Shown piece by piece: positions 2,073 through 38,636 of a DNA stretch of 64,000 nt. The notes under the pieces are model-generated. The model had not been told where the DNA came from, did no database searches, and worked only from the letters and a program-made list of their open reading frames with translations. Source of the DNA: a virus; the IMG/VR virus record IMGVR_UViG_3300020183_000011; one strand, given 5' to 3'. Positions within the stretch are counted from its first letter, which is position 1; each line of letters opens with the position of its first letter. The translations under genes were made by a program, and so were the position numbers.

Positions 2073-2080
2073 TATAAATA
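2073..2080 (+). promoter_or_regulatory. T4-type late promoter (TATAAATA) heading the membrane protein/csg cluster
   Basis: Exact TATAAATA with ATG 2085 five nt downstream. Confidence 0.75.
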
Positions 2081-2084
2081 GTAC

Positions 2085-2363
2085 ATGGGCGATATTTTTA
2101 AACTAATTGCTGATGTAGGATTCCCAATAGCCGGAGCATGTGCTGCTGGATATTTTGTGTTTCTTACCGTTAAATTTATCCTTGATGGGGTGACAGGCTC
2201 AGTAAAGGGTATGTCTAACATCATTAAAGCTTTGGATAGACGGGTAGCAGCAATGAATCACGACGTTATTCGCATAGATACTAAGGTGTCTCATGCATTA
2301 GGTATACCACCAGATCTAGATAGGATCGCGAGGGCCGAACAGTCAGACGCTAGGAGAGACTAG
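2085..2363 (+). CDS. Small single-TM plus coiled-coil membrane protein (YvrJ/BhlA-like, holin-like)
   Basis: N-terminal LIADVGFPIA...YFVF TM segment followed by a heptad region; paralog of the next ORF. Confidence 0.55.
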   Translation: MGDIFKLIADVGFPIAGACAAGYFVFLTVKFILDGVTGSVKGMSNIIKALDRRVAAMNHDVIRIDTKVSHALGIPPDLDRIARAEQSDARRD

Positions 2364-2632
2364 TGGAAGATATAGCTGACTTAATAAGCAAGTATGGGTT
2401 TCCCATCGTTGCAGCAGGCGGATTAGGATACTTCGTCTACTATATATGGAAATGGGTAACTGAAGAGATAGACCCTGTAATAGGTGAATCAAATAAAGTT
2501 TTAATTGAACTGATCGATCGTATCCGCATGTTGGATAATGACTTGATCAGGCTCAACCAAAAAGTGAATGTCATTTTGTCTTTAAGAGAGAGGGAAGAAA
2601 ATGAAGTTCACGATAAGGATACTAAGTCTTAG
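2363..2632 (+). CDS. Small single-TM plus coiled-coil membrane protein, paralog of 2085..2363
   Basis: LISKYGFPIVAAGGLGYFVYY...DLIRLNQKV aligns with the preceding ORF; GTG start overlaps the TAG stop. Confidence 0.55.
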   Translation: MEDIADLISKYGFPIVAAGGLGYFVYYIWKWVTEEIDPVIGESNKVLIELIDRIRMLDNDLIRLNQKVNVILSLREREENEVHDKDTKS

Positions 2633-3053
2633 TATTTTACTGATAGGTTGTGTCGCTCAGGCCCAACCACTCCCTGATTATACGTTCAAGAATCCATCCT
2701 TTAATGGAAATGGATACAGTAGCCACATATTGACTATTGAAAATCAAGAACGAACACGAAAAGATAATATCAAGAAAGAGATCCAAGCTGCATTAGATAA
2801 AGCAAAAAACGATGCTAACAACACTAATGTAGCTAAGTTCCTTAACAACCTTGAAAGCCGTATATATGCACAGATTAGTCAAAACCTAGCAACAGAGATG
2901 TTTGCAGATGGTGGTGCAACAAGTGGTACATTAAATTTCGAAGGTAACATCATAAATTGGAACAGGACTGGTACTGAGATCACAATGAACGTGACTGACT
3001 ATCTAGGCAGCACAACGACTGTTGTTATACCACTAGGACAGTGGCAATTCTAA
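2601..3053 (+). CDS. csgF: Curli assembly protein CsgF-like
   Basis: Signal peptide followed by YTFKNPSFNGNG (CsgF FxNPxFGG-type motif), FLNNLESRIYAQISQNL and a C-terminal G-STTTVVIP; directly upstream of csgG. Confidence 0.8.
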   Translation: MKFTIRILSLSILLIGCVAQAQPLPDYTFKNPSFNGNGYSSHILTIENQERTRKDNIKKEIQAALDKAKNDANNTNVAKFLNNLESRIYAQISQNLATEMFADGGATSGTLNFEGNIINWNRTGTEITMNVTDYLGSTTTVVIPLGQWQF

Positions 3054-3054
3054 A

Positions 3055-3855
3055 ATGTATAAACTACTAATTTTATTATCGCTGATGTTTTTAGCTGGTT
3101 GTGCAACTACTCGCGTAGTCACTACACCAGAAAAGCCTGTAGAGGTGAAGAGTATCATGCAAAAAGAGTTTGATACTATACCTCCACCTGCTGGTAGACC
3201 GATTATCGTAGCTGTATATACGTTTATTGATAAGACTGGTCAAAGAAGACCTGCTGCTAATTTTGCAAACCTTAGTTCAGCGGTAACACAAGGAGCCGAG
3301 GCTTTCTTAATAAAGGCTTTACAAGATGTAGGTAAAGGTGTTTGGTTTGAAGTCGTCGAAAGGGTAGGTATCGATAGCTTGACTAAAGAGAGACAACTAA
3401 TTCGTCAGATGCGTGAGGCGTATGATGGTCCTAAAGCTAAACCGTTAGGTCCAATGCTTTATGCAGGTGTCATCGTAGAAGGTGGTATAACTGGATATGA
3501 TACAAGCGTTAAGAGTGGTGGTAGTGCTGCACGTATGTTAGGCATTGGACCACAGACACAATACAGCGAAGACATAGTAACAGTAAGTCTTAGAGTTATT
3601 AGTGTAAACTCTGGTAAAGTTTTAGCTGCTGTAAATATACAGAAAACTATTTACAGCGCTAGTGATAGCATGGCAGTATTAAAGTTTATTAAAGATGGAA
3701 CACAGGCATTTGAGATAGAAAGTGGGTTAACCATAAATGAGCCTGGAACTCAAGCAGTAAAAGCTGCTATAGAGAGTGCAGTAGTAGAGTTAATAAAAGA
3801 AGGTAGCAAGAAAGGTATCTGGGAATTCTCCTATGAACCCTTGCAACCACAATAA
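3055..3855 (+). CDS. csgG: Curli secretion channel lipoprotein CsgG
   Basis: Lipobox LAGC; VAVYTFIDKTGQRRP, SSAVTQGA, WFEVVERVGIDSLTKERQLIR, EGGITGYD, NEP...AVKAAIESAVVELI..G. Confidence 0.92.
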   Translation: MYKLLILLSLMFLAGCATTRVVTTPEKPVEVKSIMQKEFDTIPPPAGRPIIVAVYTFIDKTGQRRPAANFANLSSAVTQGAEAFLIKALQDVGKGVWFEVVERVGIDSLTKERQLIRQMREAYDGPKAKPLGPMLYAGVIVEGGITGYDTSVKSGGSAARMLGIGPQTQYSEDIVTVSLRVISVNSGKVLAAVNIQKTIYSASDSMAVLKFIKDGTQAFEIESGLTINEPGTQAVKAAIESAVVELIKEGSKKGIWEFSYEPLQPQ

Positions 3856-3861
3856 GGAAAG

Positions 3862-4650
3862 ATGATGATAAAATCATTAAAACTTTTTATCATGATTTTA
3901 TTATTAAGTTTCAATGCATGGGCTGCAGACAATAGTATCTACATTGATCAAAGTGGTGATAACAGCACCATCGATGTGATACAAACTGGTGCAGGTAACG
4001 TCATACGTGGCATACAAGGAGTTGGTACAGGTAACACAACACCAGCAAAGATGTATGGTAACAACAGTGTAATCGATATCCAACAAATTGGTAGTACTAA
4101 CACATTAAACTTAGGTTTAAACGTAAGTACAGCAGTTGGTCGTGCGTATGGTATCGACTTAACATACTATGTAACTGGTAATAATGGTACAGCAACCATC
4201 AACAGTAACAATGCTGGTTCAGGTACAAGTGGAAGTAACTTCATAGATGTGCGTCAAACTGGTAACAGTGCAAGCATTAACTTGAACGTATTAGGTAGTA
4301 AGAATGACTTTACTGCTGTTACATCAGGTGGAGCTTCTAACAGTATCACTGCTACTATTAATGCAAACGAGACAGTAAGTAATATTAGTATGACTGGTGG
4401 TGCAAGTAATACATTTACTGGTACTCTTAGCAGCAACAAAGGTCAAGTTAACGTAACTACTGTTGGCGCAAGTAATGGTGTGACACTATCGCAAACTGGT
4501 ACTGCTGGTATTAATGGTCATGAATTTACACTAAACCTAACTGGATCTAGTAACACGTTTGGTGTTACTCAATCTGGAACTATTGACACAACAGTTAATG
4601 TATTGAGTTCTGGAAGCGGTAATACATGGAACATTACTACTGGAAATTAA
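3862..4650 (+). CDS. Secreted curlin-repeat protein (CsgA/CsgB-like)
   Basis: Signal peptide (…FNAWA) and G/N/S/T-rich imperfect curlin repeats: NSIYIDQSGDNSTIDVIQTGAGN, NSVIDIQQIGSTN, NFIDVRQTGNS, NGVTLSQTG, NTFGVTQSG. Confidence 0.72.
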   Translation: MMIKSLKLFIMILLLSFNAWAADNSIYIDQSGDNSTIDVIQTGAGNVIRGIQGVGTGNTTPAKMYGNNSVIDIQQIGSTNTLNLGLNVSTAVGRAYGIDLTYYVTGNNGTATINSNNAGSGTSGSNFIDVRQTGNSASINLNVLGSKNDFTAVTSGGASNSITATINANETVSNISMTGGASNTFTGTLSSNKGQVNVTTVGASNGVTLSQTGTAGINGHEFTLNLTGSSNTFGVTQSGTIDTTVNVLSSGSGNTWNITTGN

Positions 4651-5744
4651 TATGTATCATATTGCTCTGGCCGCAACTAACACTTGCGGCCGTGGGTAGT
4701 ATAACTGAACTTCAAAACACCCCCGCAAACATCCAACGTAAAGGCTCTAGTCTTACCGGAAATAAAGGTATAGGTGTAGAGATGAACGACGTCGTCAAGA
4801 CGGCTCAAGGCAAAACAGGTATAACTTTTGCTGACGACACAAGAGTACAAGTAAGTGAAAACAGTAAGCTAGTCATCGATGACTTTGTGTATGACCCTAA
4901 TAGCAAGAAGGGTGGTAAGCTTGCAATGAAGGTCGCTTTAGGCACAGTACGTTATGCATCAGGTGCAGTCGCACATAATAACCCAGACAACGTTAAGATC
5001 AATACACCAAGCGCTACTATCGCAGTCAGAGGTACAGACTTTACTGCTACAGTAGACGAGTTAGGTAGGAGCACCATAATCTTATTACCAAGTTGTCCTA
5101 AAGATTATAAAGACGTCATACTTGATTGTAAGACTGGTAAAATCGAAGTACTTACAGACGAAGGCAAAGTTGTATTAGATCAACCGTTTCAAGCCACGAG
5201 GGTTGATAACAGAGATAGTAAGCCGTTTAAACCAGTTACTTTAAACTTAGATGAAACTCAAATAAGTAACATACTCATATTAAGTCCACCAAAAGAGCTT
5301 AGAGAGTCTGATGAAGATAAATCTAAGAAGAGATCTGAAGTAAAAGGTGCACTAGATGTAGACTTCTTAGCGGAGAACAAACTCATAAACGTGTTAGAAA
5401 AACAGGCAGCTGAGACATATAAGAGCAAGCTAGATCGAAACTTCTTAGATAATGATTTATTAGCAAACATACTAGACATCATCAATGCACAATTAGCAGC
5501 TCAATTAGATCTATTAGGTAAGACTAAGTCTGGATTATTACCAGATTATATACCAACTTCTGGTGTATTAGTTGAAGTCGATGATCTACAAGTCACATTA
5601 TGTCGTGAAGGTAACGGAGATGTACAATGCATCACGACTCCAAAAAATCAAAATACAACCATAACACAAACTCAAGGACCAGTAGAGATCAAGAATAGGA
5701 TTAACAATGGTGGTAACACGGTTATTAACGCTACTCAAAATTAG
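4626..5744 (+). CDS. Secreted/periplasmic FecR-domain protein
   Basis: Signal peptide; VEMNDVVKT..G...ITFADDTRVQVSENSKLVID, GTVRYASG and INTPSATIAVRGTDF are FecR hallmarks. Confidence 0.85.
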   Translation: MEHYYWKLICIILLWPQLTLAAVGSITELQNTPANIQRKGSSLTGNKGIGVEMNDVVKTAQGKTGITFADDTRVQVSENSKLVIDDFVYDPNSKKGGKLAMKVALGTVRYASGAVAHNNPDNVKINTPSATIAVRGTDFTATVDELGRSTIILLPSCPKDYKDVILDCKTGKIEVLTDEGKVVLDQPFQATRVDNRDSKPFKPVTLNLDETQISNILILSPPKELRESDEDKSKKRSEVKGALDVDFLAENKLINVLEKQAAETYKSKLDRNFLDNDLLANILDIINAQLAAQLDLLGKTKSGLLPDYIPTSGVLVEVDDLQVTLCREGNGDVQCITTPKNQNTTITQTQGPVEIKNRINNGGNTVINATQN

Positions 5745-7230
5745 TCTATTGTTATTTTGCTTAGGTGCAAAAGCTGAAACTTTAGGTATAGGCTTTGAAA
5801 ATAATAGCATAGACGGGTGGACAGTTTCTGGAACATTAGCCGCTACGAAGAGTACATGGAGTTCTACAGGAGTGGGTGTAGCTCTTACCACAGGAGTTAC
5901 AAACTATAGTCCAGGTGGAGGTAAGACGTGGAACATAAACCCATATGGATCTTATATGGCTAGTATACAAGCTGGATCTTCAAACACTGTTACTTTTGAT
6001 AGTGCTATCAGCAGCTTAGGGTTGACTGGCACTGAAAATACTGCTATTAAACAATACCTGACATATCAATCACAAAACGGTGGAGGTGGAAACCCTACTC
6101 CAACTAATTCTAGCTGGATGAAAAAAACTTTTACGTTACAAACTGGTGTAACATACACGATTGCTTGGCAATACTTGAGTACAGACTACACACCATATAA
6201 TGACGGTAGTATCATGACACTAACACACACTAGTAATGCTAATATCATGCCAACACTAAACAACCTTGCACAAAGATATGCATTGTTAGGTTTTACAAAT
6301 CCTGGAACCGGTAACTATGCTACAGGCAGTTATGGAGCTACAGGATGGCAAGTAGCTCAGTTTACTGTTCCAGAAAATGGTAGTTATACTTTAGGCTTTG
6401 CATCGTTTAACTTAGGTGACACTGCATTGAGTCCTATCTTATTCATAGACGTCATGCAAGGAACTACTACACTCAATGGACAAACGTTTACACCAGTAAC
6501 ACCAAATGCTGGTAGCTCTGCTCCACCTCCTCCAGCTCCAGGCCCATCTTACAGTTCTGGAATAACACCAGCACAAACGACTACAAAGAACAATGCAAAT
6601 ACTATCAGACAAGGACAACATGGTAACGAGATATACGTTGAACAGTCTGGAAATAACAACACCTTTGATATTAGTCAAGGAGCTACAGTTACGGGTAAAG
6701 CTAGGATAGAACTATATTCTACGGGAGATAATAATACTTTTAACTTGAAACAAGGAAAGAACTCTGATGGCACTACGCCTTTGGCTGATAGTAATAATCA
6801 TTACTTATACTTTAACCTAAACGGTAGCTCAAACAATATCACTACAAGACAAGTGGATGGGACGACTTCAGGATCTGGTCATTTTAATCATTCGACTGTG
6901 GCTGGAAGCAATAACAGTATATTAAACTTACAAACTGGATCTGGTAGCAAGACTTTATTTCAAAGCGTAACTGGTAATAATAACACTGTGTCGACTACTC
7001 AGCAAGATTCTGGTCAACACTACTTAGACCTTAAACTAACTGGTCCTGGTCATAACACGACCATACTTCAGTCTGGTTCAGGTAATCATGCAGCAACCAT
7101 AGACTTAACAAATTCTGGTGGAGCAGCTACATTAAACCTTAATCAGTCAGGATCAACTAATCAAGTTTACAGTATCCAACAAAGTTGTGTTACTGCTGCA
7201 GGTTGCTCAACAAGCATCACACAACCATAG
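5707..7230 (+). CDS. Secreted two-domain protein: N-terminal globular beta domain, Pro linker, C-terminal curlin repeats
   Basis: Signal peptide (LLLFCLGAKA); SSAPPPPAPGPS linker; NEIYVEQSGNNNTFDISQG, NNTFNLKQG, NNITTRQ, NNSILNLQTG, NTVSTTQQ, HNTTILQSGSGN; ends QQSCVTAAGCSTSITQP. Confidence 0.7.
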   Translation: MVVTRLLTLLKISLLLFCLGAKAETLGIGFENNSIDGWTVSGTLAATKSTWSSTGVGVALTTGVTNYSPGGGKTWNINPYGSYMASIQAGSSNTVTFDSAISSLGLTGTENTAIKQYLTYQSQNGGGGNPTPTNSSWMKKTFTLQTGVTYTIAWQYLSTDYTPYNDGSIMTLTHTSNANIMPTLNNLAQRYALLGFTNPGTGNYATGSYGATGWQVAQFTVPENGSYTLGFASFNLGDTALSPILFIDVMQGTTTLNGQTFTPVTPNAGSSAPPPPAPGPSYSSGITPAQTTTKNNANTIRQGQHGNEIYVEQSGNNNTFDISQGATVTGKARIELYSTGDNNTFNLKQGKNSDGTTPLADSNNHYLYFNLNGSSNNITTRQVDGTTSGSGHFNHSTVAGSNNSILNLQTGSGSKTLFQSVTGNNNTVSTTQQDSGQHYLDLKLTGPGHNTTILQSGSGNHAATIDLTNSGGAATLNLNQSGSTNQVYSIQQSCVTAAGCSTSITQP

Positions 7231-7241
7231 ATAAATAACAA

Positions 7242-7985
7242 ATGAAAAAGTATAAGACTATTTGCATCTCTGACACTCATCTTGGTTCTAAGGATGCTAA
7301 GGCTGATCTACTTAATAATTTCCTTAAACACCATGAATGTGATAATCTGTTCTTAGTAGGAGACATCATAGATGGATGGAAGATACAGCAGAACAAATGG
7401 AAATGGAAGCAAAGCCATACTAATGTTATCCGTAGGATACTAGGTTATGCTAAACGTGGAACTAAGGTTACATATGTGACTGGCAACCATGATGAGTTCC
7501 TTAGACCATTCGTCAATCAGTTTGCTTTAGGTTCTATTACTATATGTAACCAAGCAGAGTATAGAGACACTGATGGAAACCTATTCTTAGTAACACATGG
7601 TGACATGTTTGATGGTATTACAAGAGTTGGTAAATGGATTGGGTTTCTTGGCGATACAGCTTATGATTGTGTATTATGGATCAATACTAAATTTAACTAC
7701 ATAAGACATAGGTTAGGGTTTGGTTATTGGTCATTAAGTAAGTTTCTTAAACATCAAGTAAAGAAAGCGATAGATTTTGTATTCAAATTCGAAGAAAACC
7801 TTGCAGGATACTGTGAACGAAAAAACTTTGATGGAGTTATTTGCGGCCATATCCATACTCCACAGATTAAGACAATCAATGGAATAATCTACATGAATGA
7901 TGGTGACTGGGTAGAATCATGCTCAGCTCTTGTAGAACATGAAGATGGTAAATGGGAAATAATTTATTGGAATGAGATCATATGA
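7242..7985 (+). CDS. plcP: PlcP-like metallophosphoesterase (phospholipase C; family often annotated as UDP-2,3-diacylglucosamine hydrolase)
   Basis: ISDTHLG, LVGDIIDGW, GNHDEFLR, HGDMFD, LGDTAYD, LGFGYWSLS..LK..VKKA, GVICGHIH, YMNDGDWVESCSALVE. Confidence 0.78.
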   Translation: MKKYKTICISDTHLGSKDAKADLLNNFLKHHECDNLFLVGDIIDGWKIQQNKWKWKQSHTNVIRRILGYAKRGTKVTYVTGNHDEFLRPFVNQFALGSITICNQAEYRDTDGNLFLVTHGDMFDGITRVGKWIGFLGDTAYDCVLWINTKFNYIRHRLGFGYWSLSKFLKHQVKKAIDFVFKFEENLAGYCERKNFDGVICGHIHTPQIKTINGIIYMNDGDWVESCSALVEHEDGKWEIIYWNEII

Positions 7986-8974
7986 AGATATTAATAGTAA
8001 CAGACAATTTAAGAGATCAAGTCAATGGCGTTGTCACTACATACAAAAATATTGAGGATCATGCTGTTTCTGCTGGTCATAGTATTGTTTATCTTGATCC
8101 CGGGAAGTTCCGTCATATTAGCTGTCCTTTTTATCCTGAGGTCAAACTTTCCCTTCCTTCGTTCTTTATCAGTAAGATTAAGAAGATGGGTGCGGATCGT
8201 ATTCACATCGCGACAGAGGGACCGCTAGGACTATTTGCAAAGTTCTACTGTGACGCAAACAAGATACCATACACTACAGCGTATCATACTAAGTTTCCAG
8301 AATTCTTAAAAAAATTATTATGGATACCTACATCTATCACATATAGGTATCTTAAATGGTTTCACAAGTATTCAAAAGCTGTGTTAGTACCGAGTGAATC
8401 GATGAGCATAGAATTGCAATCTAAGGGGTTTGTAAATCTAGTTATATGGACTAGAGGCGTATCAAAAGATCTCATAGAAAAGCGTAAAGACAAAACAAAG
8501 AATATGCCTCCAAAGATTTTGTATGTAGGTCGGGTAAGCAAAGAAAAGAACTTAGAAGACTTATGTAATTTACAAAATATGTATGATATCACTGTAGTCG
8601 GAGACGGGCCTATTTTACCTCAGCTGATCCGCAAATACAGAAAGGTTAACTTTACTGGTTATAAATTTGGAGATGAATTAAAGCAAATATATGTAGAGAA
8701 CGACATATTTGTTTTCCCAAGTCTAACTGATACTTTTGGTATAGTTATCATAGAAGCTTTATGTAATGGATTACCTGTAGCAGCATATAGGGTAACTGGT
8801 CCACAAGATATCATTGAATATGGTGTTACAGGATATCTAAGCATGTATGGCAATGGGTTACAGTCTGCTATAGAAAAATGTAAGTCATTAGATAACGTTA
8901 AAGTACAAGAATTATCTATTAAAACATGGACTTGGAAAAATTGTTTTGATATATTTATCAAAGCTGTTAAATAA
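7982..8974 (+). CDS. agt: GT4 glycosyltransferase, Agt-like (diacylglycerol glycosyltransferase)
   Basis: MKILIVTD...QVNGVV, YPEVKL, IHIATEGPLG, TTAYHTKFPE, WTRGV, YVGRVSKEKN, FVFPSLTDTFGIVIIEA..GLPVAAY; ATGA-coupled to the plcP-like gene. Confidence 0.75.
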   Translation: MKILIVTDNLRDQVNGVVTTYKNIEDHAVSAGHSIVYLDPGKFRHISCPFYPEVKLSLPSFFISKIKKMGADRIHIATEGPLGLFAKFYCDANKIPYTTAYHTKFPEFLKKLLWIPTSITYRYLKWFHKYSKAVLVPSESMSIELQSKGFVNLVIWTRGVSKDLIEKRKDKTKNMPPKILYVGRVSKEKNLEDLCNLQNMYDITVVGDGPILPQLIRKYRKVNFTGYKFGDELKQIYVENDIFVFPSLTDTFGIVIIEALCNGLPVAAYRVTGPQDIIEYGVTGYLSMYGNGLQSAIEKCKSLDNVKVQELSIKTWTWKNCFDIFIKAVK

Positions 8975-8975
8975 T

Positions 8976-9004
8976 TTTACTTTAATTAACTATAGGAGTA
9001 TAAT
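8976..9004 (+). promoter_or_regulatory. Sigma70-like early/middle promoter
   Basis: TTTACT-17 nt-TATAAT; one of 10 copies of the T(G/T)TAC(A/T)TT(A/T)A motif. Confidence 0.7.
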
Positions 9005-9010
9005 GTCAAT

Positions 9011-9646
9011 ATGAGTTTCCTTGTAGCTAACTTGCCTCCAGTACATTGCTATGTTCGTAAGGAGTTCTTATATGATTTTAAATCTGGTCATGGCGAATAT
9101 GAGTCATGTATATGGGTTAGTATCAAGAGCCTTCGTAGTCAAGCATTTAGGATAGAGTCATACTTCCCAAGATACGGAGCTTTATATGATAAGTTGCCGT
9201 TGCATGCTTATGTAAGTAGAACGACTGATCTAGAACCTGAAAAGTTCTTATCACTAGACACTTTACAGATATGGGATTGTTTTAGTTATGACATAGCAGT
9301 CATACAAAAAGCATTCTTAAGGAACTTAAGCTGTAAGGTGTATGCTAAAGATAAACAGTTTCATCATGGTGACTATATGTTTACGGTAGATAATTCAGCT
9401 CCAGACTTAAACATACTAGATACGAGTTACAGTGAAGTTCCAGAAGATCATAAGAGTTTTAACTTTATACAACTAAACAATGGACAGTATGCTGCTCAGC
9501 CGAATAACAGGTGTATATTCTTTGATGCAGCAAGTAATCCAAAAGAGATGTTATTCCCTGATTTTAAAGTCTGCACCAAGAAGTATGTGGTAGAGACTAA
9601 TCCTAAATGGAGACTAGGTGATAGCGATACAGTAACATACGAATAA
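9011..9646 (+). CDS. Conserved hypothetical protein
   Basis: Clean 211 aa ORF downstream of the promoter; LQIWDCFSY and GQYAAQPNNR motifs; no function recognised. Confidence 0.7.
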   Translation: MSFLVANLPPVHCYVRKEFLYDFKSGHGEYESCIWVSIKSLRSQAFRIESYFPRYGALYDKLPLHAYVSRTTDLEPEKFLSLDTLQIWDCFSYDIAVIQKAFLRNLSCKVYAKDKQFHHGDYMFTVDNSAPDLNILDTSYSEVPEDHKSFNFIQLNNGQYAAQPNNRCIFFDAASNPKEMLFPDFKVCTKKYVVETNPKWRLGDSDTVTYE

Positions 9647-9654
9647 ATAAACAT

Positions 9655-11664
9655 ATGAAAAAATTACTTAGCCCATGGTTTGCACTAGTCACCCTATTAG
9701 TTTTAGTAGGCATTAGAGTATCAGATCCATCATTTGTAGAGTCAGTTCGTCTTAGATACTTTGACACGCTGATCACAAGTAAACCTGTAGTACAATCAAA
9801 ACAAGTCCATGTCGTAAACATAGATGATAAGTCTATAGAACACCTTGGGCAATTTCCATTTCCAAGGACCCAATATGCAAATATCATCGAAGATCTTTAC
9901 AGCCGTGGGGCTGGTCTTGTTGTCTTTAATCTGTTTATGCCTGATAGTGATAGGTTTGGAAAAGATGCTGGACTGGCTGATACCCTTACTAGGCATCCTG
10001 TAGTATTACCACAAGTCGCAACATCAGACAAACAAAAACCTGGTGCATTTAGACCGGGAGTATCAGAAATCGGAGGCAAAGCTTCTGATCATGCAGTAAA
10101 CTATCCGGGCATTCAAGCCAATATATCATCATTTAACAGCAAAGCTGCTGGAATAGGAGTCGTAAATGTATTACCTGAAATTGATGGTGTTGTTCGTCGT
10201 ATCCCTATGGTCGTCGCAAGTGATGGCCAATTGTACCCAAGTATCAGTCTTGAAACAATGCGTGTTGCAGTTGGAGACCCAAGTTTCCAAGTCAAGTCAA
10301 ACGCAAACGGGATTGAAGCTGTCAGAATACCTAGCTTCGCCAAGGTCGTCACAGACCCAATGGGTAGAATATGGGTCGATTGGAGTTCCACGCCGATTGA
10401 ACACAGTCTTGTGGGATTACCCAAGTCATTCGATGGAGGTATCGTCATCGTTGGGTTATCGGCACGCGGACTTAACAATCCCGTTGCAACCCCACGAGGA
10501 GCCGTCTATCCTCATTATGTACAAGCTTCAGTTTTAGATACACTAACATCTGGCGCCAACATATCTCGTCCTGATTGGGCAGATGGTGCTGAGATGCTTG
10601 CTATAGTTGTATTATCAATCATCATAATCTTTTTAACGAGGTGGAAATATGCTATTCTTCCTATCATTAGTATTATTGGTTCTATATATTACGCTTCTCG
10701 CTACGTGTTCGCCCATCAAGGTATTCTGTTGGACGGCATTTATCCTATTATTAGCTTGTCTGTTGTCTATGGTCATGCATACACCGTTAAGTTCATTTCT
10801 GAATTAAACCAAAAGCTACAGATCAAGAAACAATTTGGTACATACTTATCGCCAGCAATGGTTGAAAAGTTACAAAAGAACCCAGAGCTATTGAAGCTTG
10901 GTGGTGAGACTAGAGAATTATCAATCATGTTTACAGACGTTCGTGGCTTCACGACTATCTCAGAACATTATGGTAAAGACGTTCAAGGTCTGACTAAGAT
11001 CATGAACAGATACATGACAGCCATGACAGCAAAGATCATTGAAAATAATGGTACACTTGATAAGTATATAGGTGATGCTCAGATGGCTTTTTGGAATGCT
11101 CCTTTAGATGATAAGGATCATGCATTAAATGCAGTTAAGACTGGATTGGAGATGTTAAATGATTTGGATAAATTCAATGAAGAGATCGCTAAAGAAAATA
11201 TACCAGCGTTCGGTATGGGACTTGGTATTAACAGCGGCGACGTGGTTGTTGGGAATATGGGTAGCAGCCAGCGTTTTGATTACACTTGTCTTGGTGATGC
11301 GGTCAATCTTGCTTCCCGTTTAGAAGGACAATCAAAGAACTATGGTGTACGTATCGTATTAGGTACAAAGACCGCAGAGTATGCTAAAGAAGTTTATTCA
11401 GTCGTAGAGATGGATACGATCGCTGTTAAGGGCAAGACCGAAGGAGTTAAGGTATACACGATAGGCGAGACTATTAAACATAAACATGAAGAGTATCTAA
11501 AAGAATACTATCGCGGTAATTGGAAACGTGCTACAGAATGGGCACAAGAACTCATCGATGATAAGAACGTTACTATCAAAGACTACTATCACAAGATGAT
11601 AGAACGAATGGACGAAGGTCTCCCTGCTGAGTGGGACGGTGTATATCGAGCCACAAGCAAGTAA
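9655..11664 (+). CDS. CHASE2-domain membrane class III adenylate cyclase
   Basis: N-terminal TM; CHASE2 (VVNIDDKSIEHLGQFPFPRT, EIDGVVRRIP); 3 TMs; cyclase motifs FTDVRGFT, DKYIGDAQMAFW, GNMGS..RFDYTCLGDAVNLASRLEG. Confidence 0.93.
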   Translation: MKKLLSPWFALVTLLVLVGIRVSDPSFVESVRLRYFDTLITSKPVVQSKQVHVVNIDDKSIEHLGQFPFPRTQYANIIEDLYSRGAGLVVFNLFMPDSDRFGKDAGLADTLTRHPVVLPQVATSDKQKPGAFRPGVSEIGGKASDHAVNYPGIQANISSFNSKAAGIGVVNVLPEIDGVVRRIPMVVASDGQLYPSISLETMRVAVGDPSFQVKSNANGIEAVRIPSFAKVVTDPMGRIWVDWSSTPIEHSLVGLPKSFDGGIVIVGLSARGLNNPVATPRGAVYPHYVQASVLDTLTSGANISRPDWADGAEMLAIVVLSIIIIFLTRWKYAILPIISIIGSIYYASRYVFAHQGILLDGIYPIISLSVVYGHAYTVKFISELNQKLQIKKQFGTYLSPAMVEKLQKNPELLKLGGETRELSIMFTDVRGFTTISEHYGKDVQGLTKIMNRYMTAMTAKIIENNGTLDKYIGDAQMAFWNAPLDDKDHALNAVKTGLEMLNDLDKFNEEIAKENIPAFGMGLGINSGDVVVGNMGSSQRFDYTCLGDAVNLASRLEGQSKNYGVRIVLGTKTAEYAKEVYSVVEMDTIAVKGKTEGVKVYTIGETIKHKHEEYLKEYYRGNWKRATEWAQELIDDKNVTIKDYYHKMIERMDEGLPAEWDGVYRATSK

Positions 11665-12380
11665 TGAAGTTCTTAATTTTACTTTTATTAGCATTCAACT
11701 GCTATGCTCAAGACATAACTGCTAACTCATGGGTGGTGACAGATGAAGATGGAAAGGTGATCGCGGGGCAAAATATTGCAGAAGTCAGGTCAATAGCATC
11801 TATCACAAAACTAGTCACAGCGATGACCATATTAAACAGCGGAGAGAACATAGAAGCTCCAGTCAAGACTAAAGCTTTTGGTATGATAACACGCCATCAG
11901 CTGATAGACATGGCCATAGTAAAGTCAAATAACCAAACTGCAGACTTATTATGTCAGTTATATGTAGGTGGATATGACAGGTGTATAGCTGACATGAATC
12001 ACTTGTTATTTAAGCTTAACCTACTCAACACCATCGTCTATGATGCTACTGGTCTTGATAGACGTAACAAATCCACAGCCATGGAGCTAACACAGTTAGT
12101 CCAGGAAGCTGCAAAATATCCAGAATTAGTCAACGCATCTCAACAGGCAAAGATCAAGATTAAGACCAAGAAGCGTTTCTGGGTCTTTAAGAACACTAAC
12201 CCTCTCATAGGTAAACGTCAGGACATACTGATCTCCAAGACAGGCTATACAAGGCCTGCCGGAGGCTGCCTGGCGATGCTTATGTCCACAGATAAGGGCC
12301 AGAGATCAGTCGTGGTTTTAGGCTCCCAGAACACTCATACACGCATCCCCGAAGCTGAATTCTTAGCTGAAAATTACTAA
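11664..12380 (+). CDS. Peptidase S11 (D-Ala-D-Ala carboxy/endopeptidase, PBP7-like), secreted
   Basis: Signal peptide; SIASITK (SxxK), KSNN (SxN), SKTGY (KTG); TAATG overlap with the cyclase stop. Confidence 0.88.
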   Translation: MKFLILLLLAFNCYAQDITANSWVVTDEDGKVIAGQNIAEVRSIASITKLVTAMTILNSGENIEAPVKTKAFGMITRHQLIDMAIVKSNNQTADLLCQLYVGGYDRCIADMNHLLFKLNLLNTIVYDATGLDRRNKSTAMELTQLVQEAAKYPELVNASQQAKIKIKTKKRFWVFKNTNPLIGKRQDILISKTGYTRPAGGCLAMLMSTDKGQRSVVVLGSQNTHTRIPEAEFLAENY

Positions 12381-13658: not shown

Positions 13659-13735
13659 GGGCCTATAGCTCAGTTGGTTAGAGCAGAGGACTCATAATCC
13701 TTTGGTCCATGGTTCGAGTCCATGTGGGCCCACCA
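13659..13735 (+). tRNA. tRNA with CAU anticodon, most likely tRNA-Ile2 (lysidine-modified, reads AUA)
   Basis: Cloverleaf: acceptor GGGCCTA/TGGGCCC, D-arm AGCTCAGTTGGTTAGAGC, anticodon arm GAGGA-CTCATAA-TCCTT, GGTTCGAGTCC T-arm, encoded CCA; C4:G69 and C5:G68 pairs. Confidence 0.92.
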
Positions 13736-13741
13736 AATTAT

Positions 13742-13770
13742 TTTACATTAAATCATCTTTATATTATAAT
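13742..13770 (+). promoter_or_regulatory. Sigma70-like promoter
   Basis: TTTACATTAAA...TATAAT with a 17 nt spacer. Confidence 0.7.
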
Positions 13771-13779
13771 GGAGTTATT

Positions 13780-14034
13780 ATGCAAGATATGAATGTTCGT
13801 CAGTTAATCTTAAATTCAATCAAAGATAAAAGCATCACAGTATCCTTTACTAAAAAGGATGGCAGTAATCGCAACATGCTTTGTACTTTAGCAGAGTCAT
13901 TAATACCTGAAGACAAAAAGCCAAAGACAGAGAATACAAAATTTAGTGATGACGCACTACGTGTGTTTGATTTAGATAAGCAGGAATGGAGATCATTCCG
14001 TTGGGACTCAATTAAAACAGTGAAAGGTATATAA
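13780..14034 (+). CDS. WYL_2/SH3-like (DUF2693-type) protein common in T4-like phages
   Basis: VSFTKKDGSNRNMLCTL and VFDLDKQEWRSFRWD; the tracked start at 13702 lies inside the tRNA. Confidence 0.7.
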   Translation: MQDMNVRQLILNSIKDKSITVSFTKKDGSNRNMLCTLAESLIPEDKKPKTENTKFSDDALRVFDLDKQEWRSFRWDSIKTVKGI

Positions 14035-35808: not shown

Positions 35809-36300
35809 ATGCCTACTCAGCAAATAGATTTTAGTACAATCCAAAATATATATCTAAATGGTAATGAAATTTTTGAATTACAATTAGATAATCAAGTATT
35901 ATGGAAAAAGTATCTATTTAATGGTACGACAACTTTTACCACTTCATATAATACATCAGTATCAAGTACGACTAGTGCTATAACAAATTATGCTACAAAT
36001 TATACAACATCAGTTACAACTTCTAATCTGACAGCTTATTCACAAACTACGTCTAATACTACATCGATCGCTACTATTGTTGGGCAGGACAAAAAACTCG
36101 GACCAATATATGCAAATACTGCTTATTTGACGTATTTTATTACTTCATACAATGAAACTACTTCATATACTACTTCATGGTCTACAAGTAACACAACTAG
36201 TAACACGACTTCATATTTGACAAATTATCTAGCTTCTACTTCTAACCCAACAAGTTTAAATTATAGTACGTATTTGATAACATATATTGGTAAAGTTTAA
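35809..36300 (+). CDS. Thr/Ser-rich tetrapeptide-repeat protein
   Basis: IQNIYLNGNEI...VLW N-terminus followed by TTSY/TTSW/STSN/TTSN/LTNY repeats. Confidence 0.65.
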   Translation: MPTQQIDFSTIQNIYLNGNEIFELQLDNQVLWKKYLFNGTTTFTTSYNTSVSSTTSAITNYATNYTTSVTTSNLTAYSQTTSNTTSIATIVGQDKKLGPIYANTAYLTYFITSYNETTSYTTSWSTSNTTSNTTSYLTNYLASTSNPTSLNYSTYLITYIGKV

Positions 36301-37184
36301 TGGATACAATTAACAGTAGATGGGAAGATGAATCACGGATAGGTAATAATGTACCGCTTTATGATAAAGAAATCTTTTTAGAGATTGAAAAATATATTAT
36401 AAAAACATGTGCTAAGTACGACTTAACCTGTAAGTATAATGTTGGCCCATTAATAGGAGGGGTTCCTCCTATCGAAGATAATACAATCATAGTTAATCCG
36501 TTAGTTAATGCTATAGCATATCATGATGTTATGGGTGGTATCCTGATAAGTACTAGAAACGCTGAACTAAACTGCAGAAATGTTGACACAATATTAGCTA
36601 ATCATATGACAGATGATATATCTGAAATTGTTATTTCTAAATTAAAAGACAAGTATGTATTAAATAGTAGTGATAAACTATATGATAAAGTTGCATTTAT
36701 GCCGGGATCTAACTTATTTCATACAGTTAATTGGGAAAAACTAAATGAAGCTATGATTGATAATCCATCTGCTATGATTAAACTACACCCAGTTATAACT
36801 GAAAAGTCTGCTAAGTCAATTAAGAATAAGTGGCCTGAAAGAGTTATAGATGAAAAAACTAGTGGACTACAGCTACTTAATGCTTCATCTTTAATTTGGA
36901 CTTCTTATAATAGTGAATTTGGTTTAATAGCTAGTTTAAAGAAAATACCATTTTCAAATTTAAGTAAATGGAATGATATATTTTCAATGGTATATGCACC
37001 AATATATAGAAATTTAAAATATAAAGATTTAGAGCATAATAAAGATGTAGTTTCAAAAGTAATTTCAAGTAAGAGAAGTGGATACATATTTCCTTGGCAA
37101 GATGATTGGAAACAGCGAGTTGAAATATATTTTGAATCTATACATAAGTTTAATACTGGAATGGAATATCCATATGCCGAGTAA
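36300..37184 (+). CDS. Hypothetical protein, possible GT-B / capsule-polysaccharide (KpsS-like) transferase
   Basis: IKLHP...SGLQLLNASSLIWTSYNSEFGLIA.LKKIP resembles the KxHP...L..s..v.T.nSt.G.eA...gkP motif. Confidence 0.4.
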   Translation: MDTINSRWEDESRIGNNVPLYDKEIFLEIEKYIIKTCAKYDLTCKYNVGPLIGGVPPIEDNTIIVNPLVNAIAYHDVMGGILISTRNAELNCRNVDTILANHMTDDISEIVISKLKDKYVLNSSDKLYDKVAFMPGSNLFHTVNWEKLNEAMIDNPSAMIKLHPVITEKSAKSIKNKWPERVIDEKTSGLQLLNASSLIWTSYNSEFGLIASLKKIPFSNLSKWNDIFSMVYAPIYRNLKYKDLEHNKDVVSKVISSKRSGYIFPWQDDWKQRVEIYFESIHKFNTGMEYPYAE

Positions 37185-37983
37185 AGTAATATCACAACAA
37201 TTAAAAATATATTCTGAAAATATAGATCATCATTTAGCCATCAATAGTATACCAAATTGTGGGCTTGTTACTTTATTAGATGATGCTGATATTATCTTAG
37301 ATTCAACAAATAAATTAGAATTTAAAAATATAGATATAAATGCATATTTTTCTAATAAAAGGACTAATATTAAAAGCATGCCGGCTTATGTAAAATATAT
37401 TGATCAACAAAGTATGTTATATCATATTAATAATAAGCAAGTATTGTATTCAAAGATCTCCGTGGTTCCATTCCATGAATTTATTAATAATACTTCATTT
37501 AAGTATTTTGTTGATATGTATAAAGATCAAACATTTGACTTAGTTAAGCTTGATAAAGATGATGAAACTGTTTTAACAACTGATACGCTAGAAAATATAT
37601 TAATCATTCATGATAATTTATTAGAAACAACATTGATAGAAGATGTAATGTTTAGTTCAAACTCAAAATATATGGTCAGAAAAATAAAAAATCCTCAAAC
37701 AAAATATGTTTATGGAGCTATTTCTTTTGATGGTACATCACTCCATATTGCTACTAATGTTAGGATGCCTAATCAAATTTTATCATTGGTTAAATTATTA
37801 TTTGCGGCTTGTGCCGGGTTTTTTCAAATAGAATACTTTGATAATGTTAATAAGTATGAAATTTATAGTTTTAAATTTTCAATGGATCTAGATATTTTAT
37901 CAGATAATATAATTAATATACCTCAAGTGCAAAAAGCTTTTGAAGAAATTTCAAATCAATATGAATTTGGAATGGATGTATGA
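37174..37983 (+). CDS. Hypothetical protein (weak ATP-grasp-like features)
   Basis: AT-rich ORF starting MPSKV; YMVRKI and GFFQIEY segments are only suggestive. Confidence 0.35.
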   Translation: MPSKVISQQLKIYSENIDHHLAINSIPNCGLVTLLDDADIILDSTNKLEFKNIDINAYFSNKRTNIKSMPAYVKYIDQQSMLYHINNKQVLYSKISVVPFHEFINNTSFKYFVDMYKDQTFDLVKLDKDDETVLTTDTLENILIIHDNLLETTLIEDVMFSSNSKYMVRKIKNPQTKYVYGAISFDGTSLHIATNVRMPNQILSLVKLLFAACAGFFQIEYFDNVNKYEIYSFKFSMDLDILSDNIINIPQVQKAFEEISNQYEFGMDV

Positions 37984-38636
37984 GTAAATTTCTATTGTCT
38001 CTTTCAGGTGGAAAAGATAGTTTAGCTGCTTATCTTAAATTAAAAGAAACTTTTGGTTCTAGTTGTATTAAAACGTTTACCATTAAATCAAACAATGATG
38101 TGGTCTGGAATACAGATCTAGATTTAATAGATGAAATGTATGAAAATAATATAATACTAGATTCTGGCGATAAAGTCTATTATGATGCATTTGGCCAAAT
38201 GCTAAATGATCATGATATTAATCCTAATGAATATTATTTTTCATCAGGAGAATTAGATTCTATAAATGAAACAGTAGACTATTATCCTATAATAAGTAAG
38301 TTTGGGTTTAAAGGATTTGTTACTCCATTCTATGGTAAACCTAAACAACTTGTATTTGATATCTTGCAAAAATATAACTGCGAGTTTATTATAACTCAAG
38401 CCTTTGTAACACCTACAGCTAATATTGATGAAGTTTATTCTAATATTGGTCGTATAGTAACAGCCGAGCAGCTTAAAAACATGTATCTGGATAAGAATTT
38501 TAATTATTTTTTTGCATATCAGACTTTTGCTATTAAATGTGATTCAATAATAACATTAAGCCAAAACAAAATAACAGGTTTATATGAATCTATTAATATG
38601 TCTAAAGATAAAAATACATCAATATTTATTATGTAA
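37980..38636 (+). CDS. PP-loop ATPase (diphthine-ammonia ligase / ANH superfamily-like)
   Basis: N-terminal LSLSGGKDSL PP-loop; YQTFA near the C-terminus resembles the Dph6 E(F/Y)xT motif. Confidence 0.65.
   Translation: MSKFLLSLSGGKDSLAAYLKLKETFGSSCIKTFTIKSNNDVVWNTDLDLIDEMYENNIILDSGDKVYYDAFGQMLNDHDINPNEYYFSSGELDSINETVDYYPIISKFGFKGFVTPFYGKPKQLVFDILQKYNCEFIITQAFVTPTANIDEVYSNIGRIVTAEQLKNMYLDKNFNYFFAYQTFAIKCDSIITLSQNKITGLYESINMSKDKNTSIFIM

Follow-up and report, generated by a model that had tools for sequence, protein, structure and literature searches.

A locus with the genes of bacterial curli biogenesis, a FecR-domain protein and a CHASE2 receptor adenylate cyclase lies at positions 2073-12380 of the viral DNA recorded in IMG/VR as IMGVR_UViG_3300020183_000011 (hereafter the window, meaning the whole stretch of 64,000 nucleotides that was analysed). 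On balance, it is best explained as a further copy of the phage curli module already described in the literature, with a FecR and CHASE2 pair that comes from a bacterial cassette and whose outer-membrane partner has been exchanged for a type VIII secretion system (T8SS). The window is part of a T4-like aquatic myophage, in which open reading frames (ORFs) between 29.6 and 46 kb match baseplate hub, wedge and tail-tube families of the PHROGs database. No DNA match to the region was found among deposited phages by megablast, indicating a distinct lineage. The module genes (Table 1) are all encoded on the + strand as an unbroken array of overlapping or abutting neighbours.

Modules of this kind are known from pelagiphages. 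Wittmers 2022 (PMC9599517) described CsgF, CsgG, CsgA/B, FecR, a second CsgA/B and a cyclase in podo- and myo-pelagiphages, reported expression in metatranscriptomes, and put phage curli modules at ~0.1% of assembled viral proteins. The functions proposed there are aggregation or sibling capture, superinfection defence and import; FecR is read as an iron regulator, and CHASE2 and transmembrane segments are never mentioned. Buchholz 2022 argued instead for a lysis pore and stated that csgA/B were missing. A preliminary description of the window had claimed that curlin cargo was unrecognised in the literature, which is true of Buchholz 2022 only; the claim is outdated because Wittmers 2022 identified the cargo, FecR and the cyclase.

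The relationship to these published elements is direct. Among 50,697 deposited phage records, a CsgG search matched four of Melnitz, two of HTVC008M and one of 1.5 kb labelled Salmonella phage, and no others. Melnitz (PMC9004378) and HTVC008M have the same gene content and order as the window, namely two small genes, csgF, csgG, a curlin gene, FecR, a second curlin gene and the cyclase, and curlin proteins, a FecR domain protein and a cyclase are already named in their annotations. The differences lie at the two ends. In Melnitz and HTVC008M the cyclase directly follows the second curlin gene, whereas in the window it starts 2.4 kb after it, displaced by three inserted genes, and is coupled to a gene for an S11 peptidase. 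At the other end, one or two histidine kinase genes are said always to precede csgF (PMC9599517), whereas the two genes in that position here, tmA and tmB (92 and 89 aa), lack a kinase domain; Pfam shows no domain at all in tmA, and neither HisKA nor HATPase in either product.

The secretion pore is represented by CsgG and CsgF. The former scores 158 bits against PF03783 (cut-off 20.8), aligns along its full length (residues 1-259) with solved E. coli CsgG (E 1.5e-45) and is 45-47% identical to the CsgG proteins of Melnitz and HTVC008M. CsgF scores 60.2 bits against PF10614 (cut-off 25.8) and has the motif F-K-N-P-S-F-N-G-N-G near its N-terminus, after the signal peptide; a single-sequence search of the PDB with CsgF gave nothing useful. 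Judged by sequence, both CsgF and the lipoprotein CsgG are intact. No ORF between 2085 and 12380 belongs to the Pfam families of the CsgE gate, the CsgC/H chaperone or the CsgD regulator, and the alphaproteobacterial curli type is also reported to be without CsgC, CsgD and CsgE (PMC9599517). With the curli systems of E. coli and Pontibacter (6l7a, 8enq, 8c50), the phage locus shares a full-length CsgG with its lipobox, a CsgF of the same family and curlin-repeat solenoids. Unlike them, it lacks CsgE, CsgC/H, CsgD and a recognisable CsgB, has a subunit of ~10 rungs rather than 5 and a second subunit with a large N-terminal head, and places a FecR gene among the cargo genes.

The predicted cargo of this pore is also encoded. 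A family profile built from 29 proteins at the curlin 1 position matches Pontibacter CsgA (8c50, E 3e-16) and E. coli CsgA (8enq, E 1.2e-5). The AlphaFold model of curlin 1 (predicted local distance difference test, pLDDT, 85.6; predicted template modelling score, pTM, 0.80) is all-beta, with ~20 stacked strands arranged as a beta-solenoid. An exhaustive structural aligner ranks 8c50 CsgA first (Z 21.2, root-mean-square deviation (rmsd) 8.8 Å over 213 residues), followed by generic beta-helices at Z 16.0, while Foldseek gave nothing in the PDB at E <= 0.001. In every related locus where csgG and FecR are both visible, an ORF of 154-300 aa separates them. For curlin 2, the last ~220 residues match the curlin 1 profile (hhalign 95%, E 2.6e-8), and a single-sequence PDB search returned nothing useful. 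Taken from these profiles and models, the window encodes two curlin-repeat solenoids with predicted Sec export. The preliminary description had proposed that cargo is present and had named beta-solenoid modelling as a check; the predicted fold, the CsgA structural match and the profile match all bear it out.

Curlin 2 has an additional part, a ~250-aa beta-sandwich head carried on the curlin stalk. The head resembles choice-of-anchor-L and NF038132-type domains, which is an Atlas lead only. Among related loci, the curlin part is kept in 58 of 61, and a head of the window's type is found in five of the 61. At the head position, other phages have a discoidin (F5/8 type C) domain or match PA14 weakly; for instance, the proteins at the curlin 2 position of loci L061 and L048 contain the F5/8 type C domain and a Curlin_rpt match above the Pfam cut-off. 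In L030 (11136-13697) and L032 (11134-13185), the stalk is replaced by a type Va autotransporter beta-domain (PF03797, E 1e-20 and 7e-13), and the L030 head is 39% identical to that of the window, so that one passenger is found on two secretion scaffolds; an Atlas search pointed the same way. As both scaffolds serve outer-membrane display, the head is most simply a surface-exposed binding domain. By its sequence, curlin 2 can be described as an adhesin-type fusion in which the curlin stalk is conserved and the head is exchanged between phages, in some cases for a lectin-like one.

Linkage in relatives was followed in 80 IMG/VR loci, fetched through FecR at 38-94% identity and screened by tblastn. 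Since the loci were chosen in this way, the counts show the companions of FecR and not the reverse. CsgF and CsgG were both present in all 69 loci with enough upstream flank. The cyclase was found 54-4888 nt from FecR in 45/45 loci whose sequence extends 7 kb or more beyond FecR (35/35 once de-duplicated). The association of FecR and CHASE2 with csgFG, which the preliminary description had put forward for a neighbourhood check, is therefore consistent across these relatives. The FecR protein has more than 5,400 metagenomic homologues. Some are encoded on IMG contigs of 330-364 kb (P0062, P0079, P0102; L018, L032). For two of these contigs the virus is rated 100% complete, in one case with direct terminal repeats; the module thus extends to much larger phage genomes. 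A different arrangement is seen in L090 (5210-9163), labelled a Rickettsiales metagenome-assembled genome and probably phage, where a 1317-aa FecR-domain protein with long coiled coils is followed by the CHASE2 cyclase and tmA/tmB; CsgG and CsgF were not detected within its 15.9 kb.

The cyclase has the layout of a receptor. Hydropathy places a first transmembrane helix at residues 4-26, a periplasmic CHASE2 domain at ~27-306, three transmembrane helices at 309-381 and a cytoplasmic class III domain at 413-603, in agreement with Pfam and with the CHASE2-3TM class III architecture given in the preliminary description. Compared with solved class III cyclases, it keeps the metal-binding Asp residues (FTDVRGF, IGDA), the Lys of DKYIGD, the Thr of DYTCLGD and the Asn and Arg of VNLASRLE. 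The Lys/Thr pair points to ATP as substrate, and from these residues the protein is probably an active adenylate cyclase.

Comparison with bacteria indicates where this receptor and its FecR neighbour may have originated. The nearest bacterial FecR homologues are those of Thalassospira, Rhizobium/Allorhizobium, Devosia and others, in which a full-length CHASE2 cyclase follows. The bacterial cyclases are 31-36% identical to the phage protein over ~669 residues, and the FecR-cyclase gap is ~9-100 nt in most pairs. Overall, a CHASE2 cyclase stands beside FecR in 29/63 bacterial loci, which substantiates the earlier statement that the two genes neighbour each other in bacteria. These bacterial FecR-cyclase loci contain no CsgG, CsgF, tmA or tmB. 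Close CsgG relatives (41-49% identity) occur in seven genomes of 401, all seven alphaproteobacterial, and no FecR, cyclase or tmA/tmB lies within 10 kb of any of the seven csgG genes. Because bacterial FecR cassettes are without csgG and bacterial csgG loci are without FecR and cyclase, the phage module is most readily seen as a chimera.

The bacterial cassette has a third member. Directly upstream of the bacterial FecR gene, 50 loci encode a protein of 465-502 aa with a signal peptide, N-terminal tetratricopeptide repeats (TPRs) and a C-terminal Phe, as is typical of outer-membrane beta-barrels. Among 14 of these proteins searched against Pfam, TPR_19 was matched by 14/14, TPR_Slam by 5/14 (best E 5e-7), SlipAM by 2/14 (E 0.003) and BBP2_2 by 2/14; against the PDB, the profile of the family gave generic TPR matches only. 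Two Rhizobium FecR proteins have C-terminal matches to slam_lipo, a family of Slam-dependent surface lipoproteins (E 1e-7 and 1e-8, below the 80-bit cut-off). In this respect the bacterial relatives of the phage FecR gene may resemble Slam/type XI systems, in which a translocon of TPRs and a DUF560 barrel exports its cargo, although the TPR_Slam and SlipAM matches are weak; the phage itself has no such gene. Indeed, the TPR outer-membrane gene was found in no phage locus, and csgFG occupy its place. The sequence comparison suggests that FecR and the cyclase derive from a separate three-part bacterial envelope system consisting of a TPR outer-membrane protein, FecR and a CHASE2 cyclase.

FecR cassettes of another kind are present in SAR11 genomes. 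In Pelagibacter HTCC8051 (L094, 8524-12377), and likewise in L095-L102, L113 and L117, a DUF2860/TPR-like outer-membrane-type protein and a 191-aa FecR-domain protein are encoded together with an unknown protein and an inverse-autotransporter beta-domain protein, and without a CHASE2 cyclase. As SAR11 genomes hold this native cassette, the host may supply partners for the phage proteins.

Several characterised systems resemble parts of this arrangement. In S. meliloti, the CHASE2 cyclases CyaK and CyaD1/CyaD2 are reported to need the outer-membrane protein NsrA to sense an external protein; CyaD1 without CHASE2 is constitutively active, so that CHASE2 is inhibitory there, and the FecR-domain gene smc02177 adjoins cyaD1 and belongs to the same pathway. 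The NsrA-CyaD1/CyaD2/CyaK-Clr system and the phage locus have in common the combination of CHASE2, three transmembrane helices and a class III domain, as well as a FecR gene beside the cyclase. They differ in the outer-membrane partner, which in the bacteria is NsrA or a TPR barrel and not CsgG, and in the Crp-type receptor Clr, for which no counterpart was found in the phage. The Burkholderia 'BiofilmReg' operon and P. aeruginosa PA4035/PA4036 likewise have a secreted FecR-domain protein immediately before a CHASE2 receptor, and a link to biofilms, but they signal through a histidine kinase and response regulator instead of a cyclase, their FecR protein has a LysM domain, and they include no secretion pore. 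By analogy with such systems, a relay from FecR to CHASE2 is plausible. In a complex prediction, FecR residues 22-232 and CHASE2 residues 24-310, each with a 38-row alignment, gave a score of 0.00, which counts neither for nor against contact.

The FecR protein scores 39.7 bits against PF04773 (cut-off 24). Its gene is located between the two curlin genes, overlaps both, and is translationally coupled on each side. The predicted structure (pLDDT 74.6) consists of a confident N-domain (residues 24-205), a low-confidence acidic linker (~215-300) and a six-strand C-terminal beta domain (310-372), whose tail motif N-x-G-G...I-x-I-x-Q is conserved. The N-domain resembles the PupR signalling domain 6ovm_R (Z 15.1, rmsd 2.8 Å over 137 residues) and BDI_1681 (4m0h, Z 13.6), and residues 20-117 resemble more weakly the cell-surface anchoring domain 5ix9 (Z 6.8, rmsd 2.3 Å over 73 residues). 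The fold of the FecR/PupR anti-sigma regulators of TonB-dependent signalling is thus shared, but the phage protein has neither their cytoplasmic anti-sigma domain nor a membrane anchor; instead, a cleavable signal peptide leads directly into the FecR fold. No extracytoplasmic function (ECF) sigma factor or TonB-dependent transducer was seen in the locus. The C-terminus was also considered as a set of curlin strands, which was not supported (residues 300-372 against the curlin profile, hhalign 0.2%).

This domain structure allows FecR to be seen as cargo or a tether of the pore, with the N-domain in the periplasm, the ~85-residue acidic linker running through CsgG and the C-domain on the surface or fibre, from where it could still feed the cyclase. 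We regard this as possible though unlikely. The position of the gene between two cargo genes agrees with it, as does the model, with its long low-confidence linker between two folded domains. Further pointers are the Slam-cargo matches in the Rhizobium homologues, which are encoded beside a Slam-like TPR gene, weak retention_LapA matches in 6/11 bacterial homologues, and the resemblance of the N-terminus to 5ix9. However, the Slam-cargo and retention_LapA matches all fall under curated cut-offs, the 5ix9 score is in the range of common arrangements, and the C-domain of the phage protein is not a Slam-cargo barrel and, by the hhalign result above, does not match the curlin profile.

Under the favoured reading, in which a T8SS has taken the place of the bacterial outer-membrane partner, the sequence of events can be proposed as follows. 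CsgG and CsgF would reach the outer membrane late in infection, delivered by the Sec and Lol machineries of the host. Curlin 1 would be secreted and polymerise as a fibre, which curlin 2 would join via its curlin stalk, presenting a swappable head that is lectin-like in some relatives. The displayed head would make the infected cell, or its debris, adhesive. The FecR protein and the CHASE2 cyclase would act as a functional pair inherited from the alphaproteobacterial Slam-like TPR/FecR/CHASE2 cassette, with a signal on the condition of the pore, fibre or surface possibly passing across the periplasm to the cyclase. A more far-reaching version is doubtful: the phage may have rebuilt a bacterial trans-envelope sensor, with the curli pore substituting for the translocon and FecR threaded through CsgG, its FecR or retention-like domain against CHASE2 in the periplasm and its C-domain on a lectin-tipped fibre. 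Contact of such fibres with another cell or a particle would then give a nucleotide signal, read by a novel type of receptor, by which the last stage of infection is adjusted.

Several observations weigh against the favoured reading of a curli module with a borrowed FecR-CHASE2 pair, beginning with the fibre itself. A curli fibre made by this module is predicted from sequence and modelled fold. The Pfam Curlin_rpt match is under the cut-off in both window curlins (E 0.04 for curlin 1, 0.02 for curlin 2), although the profile match, the AlphaFold solenoid and the structural match to 8c50 settle their identity. In addition, Buchholz 2022 reported no clumping of Melnitz-infected cells.

The lack of clumping also favours the interpretation of Buchholz 2022, in which the CsgG/CsgF pore and holin-like tmA/tmB would form a device for lysis timing or permeability and the curlin-like proteins would not be fibre cargo. 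Both tmA and tmB, which are paralogues, have an N-terminal hydrophobic helix (~residues 13-33 in tmA) followed by a coiled coil. Their matches to the holin family phrog_4898 are weak (E 4e-5 over 20 residues and E 1e-3 over 58, with tmA at E 1e-3), and the nearest named Atlas cluster is YvrJ (0.89), a lead only. The preliminary description had called them two holin-like membrane proteins; two single-helix membrane proteins are indeed encoded, but the holin match is only marginal. They are closely tied to the module: both are present in 24/24 full-context loci, and within the 50,697 deposited records the tmA family was found only in the six that carry the module and in none without it. Some loci instead carry the pair past the cyclase, in reverse orientation. 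The late-promoter motif before tmA and the absence of an encoded CsgE gate would suit a lysis device. No endolysin gene, the usual neighbour of a holin gene, adjoins tmA/tmB. Nevertheless, we consider such a device improbable, as curlin genes with a CsgA-like solenoid fold occupy the same position in every locus, curlin 2 has adhesin-type heads, CsgG is an outer-membrane protein whereas holins act on the inner membrane, and the holin match is confined to the first 20-58 residues.

Other points weigh on the signalling half. All Slam-like assignments in the bacterial cassettes are under curated cut-offs. In S. meliloti, smc02177 was dispensable for perceiving the plant signal tested, which means that a FecR-domain neighbour is not necessarily the sensor. 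A cyclic AMP (cAMP) output would call for a receptor, and a search of 10 phage genomes with the module gave no match to the cNMP-binding domain PF00027; five of the 10 are either estimated to be at least 99% complete or deposited as complete. Both PF00027 and class III cyclases are missing from Pelagibacter HTCC8051, and a tblastn test of the window, itself weak, likewise turned up no cNMP-binding domain. Finally, the cyclase is located 3.9 kb from FecR in the window, behind a possible promoter of its own (8976-9004). In Rhizobium (L154, 14667-17042, - strand), a convergent gene right after the CHASE2 cyclase encodes a SulP-STAS-cNMP_binding transporter, a possible local cAMP effector of the bacterial cassette.

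The missing receptor, the possible promoter, the unrelated genes inserted before the cyclase here and in other loci, and the placement of the cyclase on the opposite strand in a few loci (L007, L071, L081) could all be accommodated if the cyclase had a role separate from that of the secretion genes, such as host take-over, ATP drain or the disruption of nucleotide-based defences, and travelled with them only as a mobile block. This seems very unlikely to us: the cyclase stays within 5 kb in 45/45 loci over FecR identities from 38% to 94%, the operonic FecR-CHASE2 pairs of bacteria argue for a functional pair, and the sensory periplasmic domain has been retained.

The transcription layout is in keeping with a late block. 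The motif TATAAATA occurs at most 120 nt upstream of tmA in 38/79 related loci, compared with 0/79 for tmB, 0/69 for curlin 1 and 1/72 for the cyclase. This recurrence before tmA, and almost never before other genes, supports late expression of the block. No convincing terminator was detected between 2073 and 12380, and the number of sigma-70-like sites in the region is not above chance. Pfam searches and ORF reading recovered every gene named in the preliminary description, at its coordinates and on the + strand. Its other structural statements also held, including the late-promoter motif at the head of the module, the tight coupling of the genes, CsgF and CsgG with an intact lipobox, the ~2.4-kb distance between curlin 2 and the cyclase, and a possible promoter on the cyclase side at 8976.

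Table 1. Coordinates of the module, its promoter motifs and the genes inserted in or coupled to it
Feature	Position in window	Strand	Evidence and remarks
T4-type late promoter motif TATAAATA	2073-2080	+	Exact motif, 5 nt before ATG 2085; heads the module
tmA, 92 aa, single-pass membrane protein with coiled coil	2085-2363	+	phrog_18771, E 3e-33
tmB, 89 aa, tmA paralogue	2363-2632	+	phrog_18771, E 2.5e-35; GTG start overlaps tmA stop
CsgF homologue, signal peptide	2601-3053	+	PF10614, E 3e-16
CsgG outer-membrane lipoprotein channel	3055-3855	+	PF03783, E 2.7e-46; L-A-G-C lipobox
Curlin 1, 262 aa, predicted secreted beta-solenoid, ~10 rungs	3862-4650	+	Signal peptide; profile and fold matches
FecR-domain secreted protein, 372 aa	4626-5744	+	PF04773, E 6.9e-10; signal peptide
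Curlin 2, 507 aa	5707-7230	+	Signal peptide; head ~24-270, Pro-rich linker, curlin repeats ~290-507
Metallophosphoesterase (inserted)	7242-7985	+	Pfam Metallophos, E 9e-12
GT4 glycosyltransferase (inserted)	7982-8974	+	Pfam Glyco_trans_1_4, E 4.8e-20
Sigma-70-like promoter site (TTTACT, 17 nt, TATAAT)	8976-9004	+	Consensus scan, 10/12 positions; before phrog_3704 gene
Auxiliary gene, 211 aa (inserted)	9011-9646	+	phrog_3704, E 4.8e-86; label 'ferredoxin', category moron/auxiliary metabolic gene
CHASE2 receptor adenylate cyclase	9655-11664	+	Pfam CHASE2, E 3.9e-38; Guanylate_cyc, E 1.9e-20
S11 DD-peptidase, secreted, 238 aa	11664-12380	+	PF00768, E 2.8e-32, 112.6 bits

The three genes between curlin 2 and the cyclase are unrelated auxiliary insertions. 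The metallophosphoesterase and glycosyltransferase genes are absent at this place in Melnitz and HTVC008M. A metallophosphoesterase gene, with or without GT4, recurs ahead of the cyclase, behind FecR or curlin 2, in L010, L011, L018/L019, L054 and L068, a spread over several lineages that points to a hot spot for insertions and not to a working part of the module. The phrog_3704 gene is not a module member in relatives either.

The S11 peptidase has a signal peptide and the SxxK, SxN and KTG motifs, and its likely start is ATG 11664, which overlaps the cyclase stop by 1 nt, rather than GTG 11631. The coupling to the cyclase noted in the preliminary description is therefore present here, but the gene is not part of the module, because it follows the cyclase in only 4/53 related loci. 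From this distribution, it is taken to be a lineage-specific accessory.

Other genes flank the module. Just 5' of it, two overlapping iron-sulfur assembly genes (313-1051) encode an IscA-like Fe-S_biosyn protein of 109 aa and an IscU-like NifU_N protein of 150 aa. Next, at 1033-2067, comes a gene whose 344-aa product is a multi-pass membrane protein that weakly matches DUF4407. Its homologue immediately precedes tmA in L004, L009, L010, L012, L022, L024, L057 and L058 and has a different place or strand in further relatives, so that it may be loosely attached to the module. On the 3' side, a small WYL_2 protein (Sm-like SH3 barrel) is encoded at 13702-14034. Within the structural region, positions 36001-38000 have a guanine-plus-cytosine fraction of 0.276, compared with ~0.39 elsewhere.

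In summary, phage curli modules are abundant in the ocean and would give curli-less hosts a new surface structure. The bacterial TPR outer-membrane/FecR/CHASE2 cassette is barely covered in the literature, where both domains are named together in just 3-4 open papers. What the window and its relatives add is that the cyclase of the module is a CHASE2 receptor, that its FecR partner would come from a bacterial outer-membrane/FecR/CHASE2 cassette, and that curlin 2 is predicted to be adhesin-tipped, with swappable heads.

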